NCBI GenBank assembly: GCA_023920165.1
Contig: CP089276.1
Span: 4,092,001 to 4,156,000, forward strand
DNA from: Curvularia clavata
Lineage: Eukaryota
Direction of reading: 5' to 3'
Length of the DNA: 64,000 bases
Positions within the stretch are counted from its first letter, which is position 1, and every line of letters begins with the position of its first letter. Both the position numbers and the translations under genes were made by a program. This document shows, piece after piece, positions 57,628 to 64,000 of this stretch. The notes under the pieces were generated by a model. The model worked only from the letters and a program-made list of their open reading frames with translations, had not been told where the DNA came from and did no database searches.

Positions 57628-57839
57628 AGCTGTGGGCTTGGGCGGCTTTTATGTATTGGATTCGAGGATGGACTGTGATATGGATACTTATTGCCCTTAT
57701 AAATAACGTCTGCGAGGGAGATCTGCTCGTATAGCTCTCTTAACAACGCCATTCGGCAATGATGGGTTAAGAGTTGCATGCACATAGATCCAGGCACTGT
57801 GGTATCCCCAGATCCAGTCATTGCAACTTCCATAAGCTT

Positions 57840-59849
57840 TCAACCCTGCATCCGCCTTAGTCTTTCCTCAGCTGCCCGAGCCCTCCTTTCCCTCTCCATC
57901 CTCGCTCTCGCCTCTGGCGTCAATCCCCTCATCTCTTCCTCTCTCAAATCAGCAGCAGTCCTCACAGGCAGCGCACCCAAAGCCTTGCCTTTGCCAAGCC
58001 GTTGTTCCTTTCTTCTGACTTCTTCTGCTTCGCTCTCCTTGCGTACACGCTCAGTCTCTGCCTTCCTGCGATCTGCCTCAGCCTTGTTTTCTGCAGCTTT
58101 CGCGTCCTGCTCTTCGGCATGTCGCTTGTCAGCCTCAGCTTTAGTCATGGCTGGTGGAACACCCGCTTTCTCCCAATCCCATGCGGACTCGCCAAGCTGC
58201 GAGCGTGCAACACGGAATGCATCTCTTGTTGCACGGTCCCCCGCCAACGTGAATGGTGTCCGAGCATCATCATTCATCAATGTGGGATCCGCACCCGCTT
58301 TTGTGAGAAGGACAAGGACGATGAGTGCCGAGTTCAGCGACGCTGCAAGATGTAAAGGTGTTGGTGTATGGTGGTTTGCTGGTAGGAATGTAAATGTTGG
58401 TGGGATGTTGTTGGTCTGAATGTAGTTCATGAGCGCGGGAACCTTTGAGCGCTTGATCATTGGTATAATCTGTGATGTGTGTAACGAAGCAGCTTCCTCT
58501 TCTTTTGTCGGCTTCTTGGGCTTAGGTTTTGCGGGAGTCGTAGCCGTAGCCGTAGCTTCATTTTGGGAAGCATTCAGAGCCGCAAGCGCTGCTTCGTCAA
58601 CAGTACTTTGCTTCACTCGGGTAAGTTCAACAAAAGCACGCATGAGTTCTTTTTGAGTTGCTCGACGTGTGCTAAACGGGAAGCCTCTGTTGCGTGGGTC
58701 GTTGTTCCGCAGCACTTGCCCTTCATAGGGACCGAAAAGCGTTCTTCGATTTGTTGAACCAGTAGCGCGAACGAAAATAAGTTCTGCGGTATCGATCATG
58801 CTTTTCCAGCTGTTCAGCAGTTCTCGTACCTCGTTTACGAGTGCAGTCTCATTGTAGCGACGTATGGAAGAACCAGCAGAGTGTGCGTTGCCCTTGGCGT
58901 TATCGTTGGCAGATTGTGAGCCACCCTGCTTCCTTCGTGTCGTATATCTGTGGAATGTCTTATGAGCGATGACCGTAGCTGACCGCTCATCTGCCCCTGT
59001 GTGTTTCTTGCCCGTCTTTGGTGCCAATGCTACAATCATAGCTGCAAAATGCCCACCCCCGATCATGCAGAGAAAGTAATGCGGCCCAATATCCGTATCA
59101 GGTAGCGGGACGCCCCCCTCGTTCGCCTTGATCTTCGGAGGCTGCTTCGGTGATAGCTGCTTCCTCTTGATATTTTCTATGATATGTGACTCCTCTTCTT
59201 GCTCCGAGTTTGTAAATATGGCGCGGTATATGCCCAGCGACATGTTGTCTGGTATCGAAGGCGACGTGAACCATAGTAACGGAGGCTTGCCGGGCCCTAT
59301 TTGCTTTTTCGACGAAGTAAACTCGTCAAATCCAGGATCAGCAATTTTGGCCTGCTTCTTTAGGAGCGCGCTAAGTGTAGAATCTTTTCCCTTGCTACCG
59401 TCTTCTTCTTCATCGACTTCTGATTCCGATGACTCAGAGCCTGATATACTCTCGTCCAAGTCCCCGATGAGTTTTTCGAATTCCGTCTCGCTCACCGGCT
59501 TAGCCCCTTTTATCTTCTGCTTCAAATTATAGCCATGCAGGTCGGACCGCACATGACTGCGCTGGTCGGCAAGAGAGGTGAAGCTGAGGCCACAGAGGTT
59601 GCACGAGGTGGCCCTCGCTGGGCTGGAGTCGTCGCTATCTGCCTTGCTAGGCGATTCGGTTGTAGTCTCGGGGGCTGGGGATTGTGTTTCTGGAAGCAGC
59701 CGTTCAGGCTGGTCCTTAAGCGTGAGAGTGGCTAGAAGCTCTTCGGGTAGATCGAATACTGCAGTCGTTAGTTGAGTCGCAAACAACAAACGCCAATATG
59801 CATTACCATAGAGCGGTCGCTGTAGCAGGTGCTCTCCCTTTTGGGCCAT
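57840..59849 (-). CDS. VMS1: Vms1/ANKZF1 peptidyl-tRNA release nuclease (C2H2 finger, VLRF1 domain, ankyrin repeat, coiled coil, VIM); intron 59759-59806
   Basis: CNLCGLSF..QRSHVRSDLHGYNLKQK, GGGHFAA, HKTFHRYTTRRKQGGSQSANDNAKGNAHSAGSSIRRYNE, TPLHLAA, VIM RERRARAAEERL. Confidence 0.95.
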   Translation of the reverse strand: MAQKGEHLLQRPLYGNAYWRLLFATQLTTAVFDLPEELLATLTLKDQPERLLPETQSPAPETTTESPSKADSDDSSPARATSCNLCGLSFTSLADQRSHVRSDLHGYNLKQKIKGAKPVSETEFEKLIGDLDESISGSESSESEVDEEEDGSKGKDSTLSALLKKQAKIADPGFDEFTSSKKQIGPGKPPLLWFTSPSIPDNMSLGIYRAIFTNSEQEEESHIIENIKRKQLSPKQPPKIKANEGGVPLPDTDIGPHYFLCMIGGGHFAAMIVALAPKTGKKHTGADERSATVIAHKTFHRYTTRRKQGGSQSANDNAKGNAHSAGSSIRRYNETALVNEVRELLNSWKSMIDTAELIFVRATGSTNRRTLFGPYEGQVLRNNDPRNRGFPFSTRRATQKELMRAFVELTRVKQSTVDEAALAALNASQNEATATATTPAKPKPKKPTKEEEAASLHTSQIIPMIKRSKVPALMNYIQTNNIPPTFTFLPANHHTPTPLHLAASLNSALIVLVLLTKAGADPTLMNDDARTPFTLAGDRATRDAFRVARSQLGESAWDWEKAGVPPAMTKAEADKRHAEEQDAKAAENKAEADRRKAETERVRKESEAEEVRRKEQRLGKGKALGALPVRTAADLREEEMRGLTPEARARMERERRARAAEERLRRMQG

Positions 59850-60235
59850 CTCGTATATGCAACAGCAGATGTGGTTATTAGTTGTAGCCTCAGTGTGACA
59901 GGGAGTTGAATTTGGCGGGGCGCGTCGAAGATGACGTACGTTTCACGGCCCCACGCCTATTTGCACGCGCTAGTCGCCCACTGCTTAGCGCGTACCTAGC
60001 TTTCCCGCCACGATTGATATGCCAACCTTTTGTTTCTAGACTGGTTTGCTGATTTGCAAAAATGCGAACATACGCAAAGGCGGGGGTCTTGATAGAGAGT
60101 TTACTTAGGCCATTTCAGCTGCGCCACTTGTGACTGGAAGCAGCATAACTAGAGGCAGCATGGCTTCAAGCAGCACGGGCAGTGCAGTGGGAAAGCATAC
60201 GAGACCCTGAACAGCTCCCAAAATATAGGATCGTC

Positions 60236-61869
60236 TCAAGCTTCAGACAGCCTACGTTCTCTCGGATTTGCAGTTAACACTTGCAAGCGCACACTCTGAT
60301 AAGCTGTCCGCACACGGCCGGGAATCTGTTGTAGTCTCTCTTTGGTCGGTGGCCGAGCTATCAGCAAAACCATCAACGTGACCGGGATTGCTACAGCAAA
60401 GTACACCCAGAAATGCGGGCTACCGGGCAGGTTGGTAGCATTCATACTGAACAAGCTCGATATGTAGGTCAATGGAACGAATATGAGTGCCAGTATTGTC
60501 AAACGGCCTATATTTTCCGTCTCTGCAAAAGACCGGCGAGCGTCCAGAATTTGTACCAATGATGTGACAACTGGCAGCATGTTCTCGAGTCTATGGCCAG
60601 CATCTTCAATGTTTTTGTTGATGGCTTCAAAGTCTTCGAGCACAAGATCCACATCAGCGCGGTGTTCTGGTTGAGCGGAGGTATGCGTTTTCAAGTGGCG
60701 TATGACTGCTTGGATCTTTTGCTGGGAAACCATGCTTCTTCGGCGCCAGCCGTGAAGTTCGCGAATGTCCATGTCGAATCTCTTCAAGTCAAGACGATCG
60801 CCACCGTATTCGTAGAGCTTGAGGCAATGCAACATCACCGCCACATATTTCACCCATTGTGCAGCCACAATTCTTAGCGGGTAATAGGCAAGTGATTGAA
60901 TGGACGGATCCACTGGGTCAAAGCATTTGGGAATTGCTCGTTCCCAGTACTGGATCAAGTCACCAAGCATGCCGCTCTGCCCATGGCGTTGAGGGACTTT
61001 GTAAGATTGCGAGAAAGGCGGCATTTTCATGAAATCTTCATAGGTCCCCATATACGGTTGCAGTTTCAATTTCACCTTTTTTCCGGCATCCAAATGATCT
61101 CCGCCACGATAGAAAGTATCACCAAGTGGTGGATCGACAAGTACCAAGGCTTTATCCGTCAGCATTGTTGGTATTGAAATGCAAGAAACTTACCAAGCCA
61201 AATGCCACCCTCTTGCTTCAGTTTGATGATTGATACACGGCGTTGTGCAAGGCCAATCTTCGTTGCCCGGAGAAATACCAATTTGCGGTTGATGGCTGTG
61301 TCGGTCATGAATCGGGCGCCGGATGGGAATATATCGTTACAGGTAACAGATTGGTGATATGATATATTTACATAGCCACTCTGGTGAAGACGGGACGGCA
61401 GATTCGCATCGTCGGGCGTTTGATGGTACATCCCTGTCCTATGCACAGTATGCAAGTGTGTTGCGAGGAACAAAGGATCAATATCCAGCTCAGCGCCCAA
61501 GACAGTAATCATCTCAGCGGTCAAGTCTTCGATTAGGAGAATCCGTCCTTGAATTGCCAGATTGGACTGGTCATTCGACTTCTCCGTTTCGTTGTTTACT
61601 GCCCTTCTTAATTCGGAATGCAAACAGTCAATATCGGGAATGAACCGAATATTAGGGCCAGTGACTCCAGCCCGGAATTCAAGCGCAGTGGCGCGGCACA
61701 CAAACTTCCGAGTATCAGGCTTTACGAGGAAAGAAGAGAAAGTAGAGAGCGAGGGATTTCTAAAGCACAAGTCTTGAATGTATTTCTGGTATGCGCGCAG
61801 CGACGGGATGTGTGCATCCTCGCGCGTAGAGTAATCTGACGGCGGAGCGCAAATTGACTTGACTGTCAT
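60236..61869 (-). CDS. CorA-like (Mg2+ transporter superfamily) fungal membrane protein with degenerate GMN signature (FSMN); one intron near 61150-61192
   Basis: LLIEDLT..LG..LDIDPLFLATHL in the N-terminal part; long stalk helix; ENIGRLTILALIFVPLTYISSLFSMN...FWVYFAVAIPVTLMVLLI two-TM C-terminus. Confidence 0.82.
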
Positions 61870-62706
61870 GCTTTGTAGTTGATCTCAAGAGTGATGTTTG
61901 TCGCTAAGTGCCCTGTAGAGGTTAGAAGTAAGAACTCGCTACAACTGTTCGACCGCGGAGAAGCATCCTTGTGGTTGCACAACCTTGCTGCCTTAGTGCG
62001 ACGTGGCGTGGCTCAGCCTGGCGACCTTCTACCCACGGCTGATTTCAGCACCTGACACCTCAGCAAAAGAAAACAAAACGACTTTGAAAGTATTCAGAAG
62101 AGGTGATGAAAACAGAGAACACGCGAGTATTGAAGGTATACACTATGATTTCTGATAAATACTATTGACTGTTTTCTCTGTTATATCTTGCAGTCTTGCC
62201 CTAAGTACCTAGCTGTGAGGAATATTAATGATACAAGAAGGGGTGTGTGTGCCCATGTCAGCACATAAGGCAACTACAGGCAAATGACATGTGACCATGT
62301 GTTGTATTGCCTTGTTGCATGACTCTGCCTCTGAACCGAGCCTGGACTTAGTCGAGGTGGGTCGATGGATGTGTGGAGGATTATGCAATTGGTAGTAGTG
62401 GTACGGCAGTTTGAGCAGCTGGCGCCCCAGCCCAGCGCCCCATCCCAACTCCGGTCACTGGAGGAACTGGCAAGATACTAAGCACCCAATCACCCTCAAG
62501 ACGGAGCGCCTCGTCATAAAGCCTGCCTGGAGCCAAACGTATCAGGCTGATACTGGTATTTCCATACAGGAGGGACAGAGGCTGTATTTAATAAGAACAT
62601 CCGCCTTAAGCAGAGGAAAGCAGTGTGTTCTCCCAGCTCTTTATAGCCATTTTCATACGTCTGGTGTTCTCTAGTTCCAATACTTCAAGCATCCATTCAA
62701 CCTGAA

Positions 62707-64000
62707 ATGTCTTCATACAACACTGAACCAAGAAGATCCTCGGATCTATCGATTCAAGATCATGAGGACATTGGCAGAATTAGGGCGTTGAATCGTACGA
62801 TGACATATCTTAACACGCCTGCTCAATCAGCCATCAAGGAATTCTTGTCAGTTGCTTACCACATTGAGCACTACGAAGCCTTGGCTAAGAGAGCCCAGAA
62901 ACTGCTCGAGGCCGCTTTGAAGGATGCACGAGATTCTGACAAGGTTGAGGTTCAGTTCCGAATTACCTGTCGAGCAAAAACAATAAAGAGTCTGGAGGAA
63001 AAGCTACAAGCAAGAGATAAAACGCGAAACTATCGCACTGTACGAGATATCTTGGAGGATGTGCCAGATCTCGCTGGAGTAAGAATTGTGCTTTACACAC
63101 CTAATAAGGCCCAGCGGTCTAGAGTCAAAGAAGCTATCAAAGAGATCTGGGGTGACGGTGTTGAGGAAAGACTACATGGGGATCCAGTGTTGTCACGCAA
63201 AGCAAACTCGAGCAAGATTCACGACAAAGATGCAGATAATAACGACGAGGACGCCATGAGCAGTGGCCGGGAGAGTGAAGAGTATGTGCCAAAACACCTT
63301 GGGTATCAGGCCGACCATTACCGAGCTCTTATGCGCAAAGACCAACAGGATGATTCGTATAAGTACAAAGAGATAGACAAGGTAGAGATACAAGTCGTCT
63401 CAGCTCTTGGACATGTATGGGCAGAAGCAGGTCACGACGTCATGTATAAAACTCACGCGTACGGGAATCCTACAAAGTTGGAGCGTCGTATTCTAGACGC
63501 GCTCAGCGGTCTCATCACATCAGGAGACTTACTGCTCGAAGAGTTTCGTGAGTCAGTGACTAAGCGAACATATGCAAGATGGAGGCACCGAGAGGATCTC
63601 GCCATGTGGCTTCGCGAGTCGGACGTTATGAAGCAAAAAGGGAGGGAAGACGAAAAAAAAATCCACAAAACCTTGGATTATCATTTCGGGGCAGCAGGTA
63701 TCGATATCTTGTACAAATTCCTGAGCAAGACGGACAACAACTACCCAATAGCCGTTCGAAACATCCTCAAGACGCTAGATTTTCCGAAAAATCCCATATC
63801 TGGGTTGAAGAATGAACTCGCCCGATTTGGAGATGGCTTTGTACCTCCACACGGCCTGCTCGCACCGTTCTGTGTCTTGTCGCGTCTCTTACCCAAATCA
63901 GAAGAACCCTTGGATATGGAGGCACATAATGTATCTCAGAAATGCAGCATCATGATGGACGCATTTATCCTTCTCCAGACATTCTCTGGCACAGCAGCTG
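62707..64000 (+). CDS. RelA/SpoT-domain (alarmone synthetase-like nucleotidyltransferase) protein, at least 431 aa, truncated by the window end
   Basis: Stop-free frame from ATG 62707 to the window edge, absent from the ORF track. Motifs RAKTIKSLEEK (62971-63003), DLAGVR (63067-63084), GYQADHY (63301-63321), EIQVVSALGHVWAEAGHDVMYK (63385-63450). Confidence 0.88.
   Translation, partial: MSSYNTEPRRSSDLSIQDHEDIGRIRALNRTMTYLNTPAQSAIKEFLSVAYHIEHYEALAKRAQKLLEAALKDARDSDKVEVQFRITCRAKTIKSLEEKLQARDKTRNYRTVRDILEDVPDLAGVRIVLYTPNKAQRSRVKEAIKEIWGDGVEERLHGDPVLSRKANSSKIHDKDADNNDEDAMSSGRESEEYVPKHLGYQADHYRALMRKDQQDDSYKYKEIDKVEIQVVSALGHVWAEAGHDVMYKTHAYGNPTKLERRILDALSGLITSGDLLLEEFRESVTKRTYARWRHREDLAMWLRESDVMKQKGREDEKKIHKTLDYHFGAAGIDILYKFLSKTDNNYPIAVRNILKTLDFPKNPISGLKNELARFGDGFVPPHGLLAPFCVLSRLLPKSEEPLDMEAHNVSQKCSIMMDAFILLQTFSGTAA

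Follow-up and report, generated by a model that had tools for sequence, protein, structure and literature searches.

A divergent gene pair of a RelA/SpoT-type enzyme and a CorA-like membrane protein is conserved in Dothideomycete fungi and is a candidate signalling module

The stretch of Curvularia clavata DNA analysed here, 64,000 nucleotides long and referred to as the window (assembly GCA_023920165.1, contig CP089276.1, positions 4,092,001 to 4,156,000), ends with two genes that diverge from a common spacer. One codes for a predicted RelA/SpoT-type enzyme and the other for a CorA-like membrane protein. We find that this head-to-head arrangement recurs in other fungi at loci whose remaining flanks differ. 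The recurrent pairing, the consecutive accessions of the two genes in named species and the lack of conservation in the flanks together support a functional linkage, and suggest that the RelA_SpoT and CorA-like genes work together. The reading that we favour, with a probability of about 0.4, is that the pair is a conserved divergent module of Dothideomycetes, mostly Pleosporales, in which a nucleotide product of the enzyme would gate a CorA-like pore in immunity or cell death.

The conservation of the pair was examined in metagenomes and in named species. An alignment of 36 RelA homologues, used to scan metagenomes, matched 600 stretches, among which 273 relatives were confirmed and 80 loci were kept. 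Judged by identity, open reading frame (ORF) structure and introns, 12 of these loci are fungal-type (L001-L009, L011, L017 and L061) and 68 are bacterial-type. Searches by tblastn with both CorA exons gave matches at seven loci out of the 80, and each of the seven is fungal-type. Ten fungal loci were informative, L001 and L011 being left out because they have no upstream flank. Six of the ten (L002, L003, L004, L005, L008 and L017) carry the pair head to head, with CorA on the minus strand and RelA on the plus strand. At L061 (1205-9961) the orientation is the same and the pair is split by an ORF-poor insert of 8.7 kb with 35% GC. RelA identity is ~40% both among the pair loci and against the window, with 74% between L002 and L005 and ~30% for L017 and L061. 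Mutual identity of this order indicates that the pair loci represent deep, separate lineages.

Among named relatives, the best matches belong to the Pleosporales genera Alternaria, Epicoccum, Didymella and Boeremia. At least 26 of the 84 closest RelA matches (P0002-P0085), by a hand count that is a lower bound with 120 of 300 CorA matches listed, have a longest contig of exactly the same size as that of a listed CorA match. GenBank accessions are consecutive for nine of ten named RelA/CorA pairs, which come from eight Dothideomycete species, mostly Pleosporales. These are the pairs of Didymella keratinophila (RelA KAF3045805, CorA KAF3045806), Boeremia exigua (KAH6642909, KAH6642910), Amniculicola lignicola (KAF1993575, KAF1993574), Lojkania enalia (KAF2262813, KAF2262814), Paraphoma chrysanthemicola (KAH7076773, KAH7076772), Paraconiothyrium brasiliense (KAL1595287, KAL1595288) and Kalmusia sp. 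(KAJ4302657, KAJ4302658), together with two pairs from Phaeosphaeriaceae sp. PMI808 (KAH8723479, KAH8723478 and KAH8698176, KAH8698175), the RelA accession being given first in each case. Adjacency in one genome, which the original prediction had given as the sole evidence of linkage, no longer stands by itself.

General synteny does not account for the pairing, since the flanks are not shared. A comparison of 13 regions, namely the last 14 kb of the window and the 12 fungal loci, gave three recurrent ORF families, antisense shadows aside: RelA in 13 regions, CorA in eight and a zinc-finger ORF in six. VMS1, the neighbour of the pair in the window, was found in none of the 80 metagenome loci. 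The distance matrices of RelA and CorA, compared across 28 pairs, gave a Spearman coefficient of 0.63, a value reached by none of 2000 permutations, and the nearest neighbour was the same in both families for 17 of the 28 pairs. The two paralogous pairs in the PMI808 genome each group with different partners, and do so consistently in both families, which suggests that the pair was duplicated as a unit. Microsynteny across relatives, by which the original prediction had proposed to be judged, thus shows the linkage kept, the opposite of the unlinked orthologues that it had named as evidence to the contrary.

Several observations nevertheless weigh against a working module. No CorA gene is present at three of the ten informative fungal loci; at L006 the RelA is intact and the DNA upstream of it is ORF-poor, and L007 and L009 are low-GC contigs with a truncated or frameshifted RelA. 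The tenth named pair, from A. alternata, has accessions seven apart rather than consecutive. The CorA subfamily is larger than the RelA family (300 against 125 matches in length-limited searches), and some of its members, such as Kalmusia N0V90_001619 and N0V90_001711 and two Lophiotrema proteins, lie off the contigs of any listed RelA. A correlation of distances can arise from shared descent alone. The two genes might have no direct functional coupling, their adjacency coming from a compact bidirectional promoter or from chance joint duplication. The L006 locus, the many CorA genes without a listed RelA and the possible origin of the distance correlation in common descent are in keeping with this, as is the fact that linkage is the only direct evidence. 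We consider the explanation improbable, since the genes remain neighbours in the same orientation at ~40% RelA identity while the rest of the flanking DNA differs, one genome has two paralogous pairs, and the orientation is kept in L061 despite the 8.7-kb insert. L061, L007 and L009 look like decayed or disrupted copies, and repeat-induced point mutation or transposon insertion is a possibility for how they came to this state.

The RelA_SpoT gene lies at 62707-64000 on the plus strand, where the window holds the first 431 of its 533 codons; the ORF runs off the window end, with ~0.3 kb of the gene past it. The full product, P0001, has 533 amino acids and covers 100% of the query at 100% identity. 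The synthetase (RelA_SpoT) domain, recognised from the translation, motifs, profile and fold match, covers residues 89-250 (62971-63456, plus strand). The Pfam family RelA_SpoT (PF04607) was matched with an E-value of 3.9e-7 and 30.8 bits against a cutoff of 27, and the homologues also carry PF04607. The synthetase motifs are present as R89-x-K91, D121-x-x-G124-x-R126, G199-Y200-x-x-x-H204, E227-x-Q229, H236-x-W238 and Y247-K248. Sixteen of these and neighbouring positions are invariant in 36 of 36 homologues (R89, K91, K99, D121, G124, R126, G199, Y200, H204, E227, Q229, H236, W238, H243, Y247 and K248), and in a profile of the 36-homologue alignment the catalytic-type blocks line up with the RelP/YwaC motifs. 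The exception is the motif E-x-Q-x-R-T, which reads E-I-Q-V-V-S in the fungal protein and E-I-Q-V-A-S in bacterial relatives.

The AlphaFold model of the protein (predicted local distance difference test, pLDDT, 81) has an N-terminal domain at about residues 40-255 with the fold of a small alarmone synthetase (SAS). VIA-align, whose rows cover residues 37-275 almost exclusively, placed this domain closest to Bacillus subtilis SAS1 (RelQ; 5dec_A) with Z 16.8 over 185 residues at a root-mean-square deviation of 3.0, and to RelP (6ewz_A) with Z 15.7. Lower matches were obtained with CapRel (Z 10.2), Tas1 (9.8) and FaRel (7.2). The SAS fold was also found by Foldseek (E 3e-5, TMt 0.68-0.77). Residues 257-520, about 270 in length, form an all-helical C-terminal domain in the model. 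An Atlas search linked this domain to no named family (best feature score 0.83, below 0.9; structural TM at most 0.36), and a single-sequence search of the PDB with P0001 gave chance matches only (E at least 0.36). PF04607 is the sole Pfam domain in the precomputed annotation of P0001 and in a scan of the 431 residues within the window, with no NACHT, NB-ARC or repeats. We considered that the gene might code for a NOD-like receptor (NLR), and rejected this because the protein has no NOD domain. Taken together, motifs and model lead us to predict a stand-alone nucleotide pyrophosphokinase of the RelA/SpoT family and small-alarmone-synthetase type.

Relatives of the enzyme are for the most part of similar size. 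The best 150 of 1498 matches in an exhaustive search are mostly 400-600 amino acids long, and only P0241 (1160) and P0348 (704) exceed 600. P0241, a metagenome protein, has a RelA-like part at residues 1-526 followed by 630 residues with no Pfam family and no NOD domain. It was the only protein returned by a search for longer or fused relatives, and may be either a merged gene model or a new fusion.

The CorA-like gene, on the minus strand at 60236-61869, has two exons, so that the ORFs at 61159-61869 and 60236-61165 are one gene. Exon 1 (61194-61869) codes for the N-terminal alpha/beta portion of the cytoplasmic domain, and exon 2 (60236-61149, stop codon included) for the C-terminal part of the soluble domain, a stalk helix and two transmembrane (TM) helices. 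The intron of 44 nt (61150-61193) has the signals GTAAGT...CTGAC...AG, and splicing restores the frame to give a product of ~529 amino acids in which the junction codon is a split GCC (Ala). This splice model agrees with the Alternaria alternata orthologue P0122, in which the split codon corresponds to Ala227; exon 1 is 68% identical to P0122 residues 1-226 and exon 2 is 76% identical to residues 228-524. An intron of 48-52 nt is also found at the equivalent place in L003, L004, L008, L017 and L061. It is missing from L002 (691-2304, minus strand) and L005 (285-2009, minus strand), where the ORF is continuous. Neither this intron nor the truncation of the RelA_SpoT gene by the window end had been noticed in the original prediction.

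The C-terminal half of the protein matched the Pfam family CorA (PF01544) with an E-value of 2.6e-11 and 43.9 bits against a cutoff of 27, and exon 1 alone matched no Pfam family. A model of the orthologue P0122 (pLDDT 71.5), used in place of the window protein, to which it is 68-76% identical, aligned with Thermotoga maritima CorA over ~450 columns (Foldseek E 1.6e-8). As far as the orthologue model represents it, the CorA-like protein has a complete CorA architecture, with an alpha/beta N-terminal domain, a stalk helix and two C-terminal TM helices. The segment TM1-loop-TM2, LTILALIFVPLTYISSLFSMNATNLPGSPHFWVYFAVAIPVTLMVLLIA, was located by translation at 60356-60502 (minus strand), where the TM helices of the P0122 model fall. 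Canonical Mg2+ channels need the motif Gly-Met-Asn (GMN) at the end of TM1. Here the window translation reads FSMN, and Ser-Met-Asn (SMN) stands in place of GMN at 60440-60448 (minus strand); its Ser-Met is unchanged in all 18 full-length homologues compared. The protein is therefore a member of the CorA superfamily by fold and lacks the signature of the Mg2+ channels, and we rejected a canonical Mg2+ transporter because GMN is absent. A His/Arg-rich stretch of the soluble domain, HLHTVHRTGM.HQ.PD.A.LPSRL (P0122 residues 139-162), is nearly invariant; most of it reads HRTGMRHQxPDEATLPSRL. In the window it is coded by exon 1 at about 61390-61460 (minus strand), and its low pLDDT is that of a flexible basic loop. 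As speculation, this loop could bind a phosphorylated ligand.

Between the starts of the two genes lies an intergenic region of 837 bp (61870-62706), presumably a bidirectional promoter. The layout foreseen in the original prediction, two genes diverging from an 837-bp spacer next to VMS1, agrees with our coordinates and gene content. The neighbour downstream of the CorA-like gene is a VMS1-like gene at 57840-59849 (minus strand), with a bVLRF1 match of E 1.4e-60 and ankyrin repeats; its C2H2 zinc-finger match is weak and falls below cutoff (E 0.093). The equivalent spacers in L002-L005, L008 and L017 measure ~0.4-1.0 kb. By k-mer counting, 13 copies of the motif CAGCCT[GT]G lie within 4,860 bp of spacer DNA, against 11 in the 64,000-bp window, with at least one copy in each of the seven pair spacers (window, L002, L003, L004, L005, L008 and L017). 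The 8-mer CAGCCTGG, which in the window is a copy at 62014-62021 (plus strand), is found in six of the seven, the maximum in 50 shuffles being four; the motif was found post hoc, with discovery and counting on the same data. A further CAGCCT[GT]G stands at L006:8134.

A C2H2 zinc-finger ORF lies directly downstream of RelA, tail to tail, in L002 (4878-5951), L005 (4516-5691), L006 (11455-13035), L008 (7340-7924) and L011 (2236-2982), on the minus strand in each, and 4 kb from RelA in L003 (7339-8643, plus strand). Its C-terminal part is a conserved two-finger module (…YRCA..GC.KADKIWTRLDNFKQH…). This ORF may belong to the cluster as a third gene, perhaps with a regulatory role; the equivalent position in the C. 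clavata genome falls past the window end.

The shared promoter motif and the C2H2 gene, present at five loci and 4 kb off at a sixth, are regulon-like, and could belong to a physiological module for ions or stress. The CorA-like protein would then carry a divalent cation other than Mg2+, the synthetase would adjust nucleotide pools in response and the C2H2 factor would co-regulate both under metal or nutrient stress, and the pair would play no part in immunity or cell death. Cations other than Mg2+ are carried by ZntB-type relatives, whose filters are altered. The complete architecture of a CorA transporter fits such a role, and the SMN filter suggests altered selectivity rather than loss of function. 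The pair in the window also adjoins housekeeping genes. We nonetheless hold this explanation to be distinctly unlikely. One genome has more than one copy of the pair, and elsewhere it is degenerate or split (L007, L009 and L061), as is more typical of accessory or conflict genes, and no pathway joining an alarmone synthetase to a CorA transporter turned up in the literature searched. In addition, the absence of a RelA/SpoT homologue (RSH) hydrolase from fungi with such synthetases, as given in passages of PMC3153485, fits poorly with a reversible homeostatic signal.

The bacterial relatives of the enzyme, which align with query residues ~40-365 at 27-34% identity, are solo ORFs of ~420-460 amino acids, consisting of the synthetase and a C-terminal extension, in genomes of 31-69% GC. 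By tblastn, a CorA-like gene was found in none of the 68 bacterial-type loci, the one match being a chance match (E 0.73), and the CorA partner therefore appears to be a fungal acquisition. Nor is any neighbour conserved across the 66 bacterial-type loci with an analysable RelA ORF; the neighbours are lineage-specific (beta-lactamase, malic enzyme, recombinase and others). Three of the relatives stand beside AbiEi/AbiEii, Phd/ParE or a serine recombinase (L036:7993-9734, L029:11236-12383 and L014:8381-9814), and toxin-antitoxin or recombinase neighbours of this kind are hints of mobile or defence islands. The PADLOC model PDC-S33, a single-gene candidate, weakly matched four of the five bacterial relatives tested (E 6.5e-9 to 3e-5; P0120, 1.1e-3) and P0001 (E 1.4e-5, with no stretch passing by itself).

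These data bear on a different division of labour, in which the enzyme would itself be the growth-arresting effector and the CorA-like protein a membrane or ion-stress sensor, an anchor or an antidote rather than the receptor of a product. Proteins of the toxSAS/CapRel kind pyrophosphorylate tRNA or make (p)ppApp. The solo bacterial genes, with no conserved neighbour, agree equally with a toxin that is complete in itself and with a signal-making enzyme. The AbiE, ParE/Phd and recombinase neighbours, the weak PDC-S33 match and the structural matches to CapRel, Tas1 and FaRel (Z 7-10) point the same way. RelA also evolves faster than CorA (nearest-neighbour distances of, for example, 0.45 against 0.26), as would a conflict sensor or toxin. 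However, the nearest folds are the (p)ppGpp-making RelQ and RelP (Z 15-17) and not toxSAS proteins, and a self-sufficient toxin needs no partner kept adjacent at ~40% identity. We regard a toxin-centred module as unlikely.

For the module in which a nucleotide signal would open a pore, we propose the following course of events. The helical C-terminal domain would hold the synthetase off until a trigger is received. The triggered enzyme would then make a pyrophosphorylated nucleotide of the (p)ppGpp or (p)ppApp type, and this product would bind the cytoplasmic domain of a CorA-like pentamer and open its pore. Ion flux or depolarisation might follow, with growth arrest or death of the affected compartment. 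So arranged, the module would be a eukaryotic counterpart of the bacterial defence systems that combine a signal synthase with a membrane effector. We favour this course because a nucleotide-gated CorA effector exists in type III CRISPR (passages of PMC10600005) and because RelA_SpoT is recognised, in the parts of the literature covered, as an effector head of fungal NLRs. We favour it also because a dedicated membrane partner has been kept with the fungal genes and not with their solo bacterial relatives, and because fungi with divergent SASs are described in passages of PMC3153485 as carrying no RSH hydrolase; a dedicated local receptor fits this absence better than a housekeeping alarmone system does.

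On the other side of the balance, the change of E-x-Q-x-R-T across the clade, bacterial relatives included, weakens any prediction of the product and even of the class of substrate. PADLOC models of CRISPR-type CorA matched weakly (E 0.004-0.007) and in the TM region only. The locus in the window adjoins a housekeeping gene and is not obviously an accessory region. A predicted complex of the CorA soluble domain (P0122 residues 20-436) with RelA (P0004 residues 40-535), run without alignments or controls, scored 0.00 and is uninformative either way. The stretch is found in 23 rows of the sequencing-run listing, none of them listed as RNA. Of the runs compared, X21 is near-identical to it and X17 and X19 are mixtures with diverged VMS1-like contigs, and they offer no usable contrast in polymorphism or in presence and absence among strains; stretches without cover do not count as evidence. 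In run X22, two error-free contigs (63063-63309 and 63534-63998) fall on the RelA_SpoT gene alone within 57800-64000; the run is labelled RNA by guess only and is not usable as expression evidence.

Catalogues of fungal RelA_SpoT domains, as divergent SASs and as NLR heads, go back to 2011-2014 and, to our knowledge, no product or target of these domains is known. The conserved partner described here is the first concrete candidate receptor or effector for the products of fungal RelA_SpoT enzymes. If a nucleotide signal does gate the CorA-like protein, the bacterial logic of a nucleotide signal and a membrane effector, known from cyclic-oligonucleotide-based antiphage signalling systems (CBASS) and from type III CRISPR with CorA, would also hold in a eukaryote that uses different parts, and the function of RelA_SpoT-NLRs would become directly testable. 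Even a physiological role would give a first functional context to the large fungal family of CorA-like proteins without GMN. A bolder version can be stated, which we think doubtful though not implausible: that this is the first eukaryotic messenger pathway of the alarmone type, with a RelA/SpoT synthetase derived from solo, defence-like bacterial SAS genes and a product that would open the CorA pore coded next door, leading to regulated death or immunity. The same chemistry would operate in RelA_SpoT-NLR heads, for which CorA-like proteins would be the missing receptors.

Both SAS-like genes and RelA_SpoT-NLRs of fungi have been published before, and the pairing of a SAS-like gene with a CorA-like gene is new as far as we have found; no paper linking either with CorA-like genes was found in a search that lay outside subscription journals and preprint supplements. 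Divergent SASs of Aspergillus and Gibberella ('divRel', later 'FunRel') were catalogued in 2011 (in passages of PMC3153485), and a subfamily under the name FunRel is given in a preprint (bioRxiv 10.1101/575399). The fungal enzyme resembles RelQ/SAS1 and RelP/SAS2 in its RelA_SpoT Pfam domain, in the motifs R-x-K, D-x-x-G-x-R, G-Y-x-x-x-H and E-x-Q...W-A-x-x-H...Y-K, and in its fold (Z 16.8 and 15.7). It differs from them in its length of 533 amino acids with a helical C-terminal domain of ~270 residues, in having V/S for R/T, in its eukaryotic host and in its CorA-like partner. With CapRel, FaRel and Tas1 it shares the plan of a single polypeptide in which an N-terminal synthetase is followed by a C-terminal regulatory extension (Z 7-10). 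In contrast to these, its Z scores are lower than with RelQ and RelP, its C-terminal domain is unrelated by the searches run, and in fungi it has a conserved membrane partner.

The RelA_SpoT domain is also common to the fungal pair and to NLRs of filamentous ascomycetes, in which it has been proposed as an immune effector head (passages of PMC4986451, PMC3689799 and PMC12258605). Podospora anserina nwd5, with the architecture RelA_SpoT-NACHT-WD, is up 3.6-fold during incompatibility (according to a passage of PMC3689799). The enzyme of the fungal pair, in contrast, has no NACHT or NB-ARC domain and no repeats, and the searched passages of the same three papers (PMC4986451, PMC3689799 and PMC12258605) do not mention a CorA partner.

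The membrane protein shares its Pfam family, CorA, and its architecture with CorA, Mrs2 and Alr1, from which it differs in having SMN for GMN and an extra conserved His/Arg-rich loop of low pLDDT (P0122 residues 144-157). In type III-B CRISPR of Bacteroides fragilis, passages of PMC10600005 describe a CorA-family effector that binds the second messenger SAM-AMP. The differences from that system are that the signal enzyme is of the RelA/SpoT type here and Cas10 there, that the host here is eukaryotic, and that the fungal protein keeps the whole CorA fold, whereas the CRISPR protein is CorA-like only in its C-terminal 172 residues (same passages). No NrN, DEDD or lyase gene was found at the pair loci, where the C2H2 ORF is the sole third conserved gene. 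What the two systems have in common, as far as those passages describe the bacterial one, is a nucleotide-making enzyme linked to a non-standard membrane protein of the CorA superfamily with an N-terminal soluble domain.

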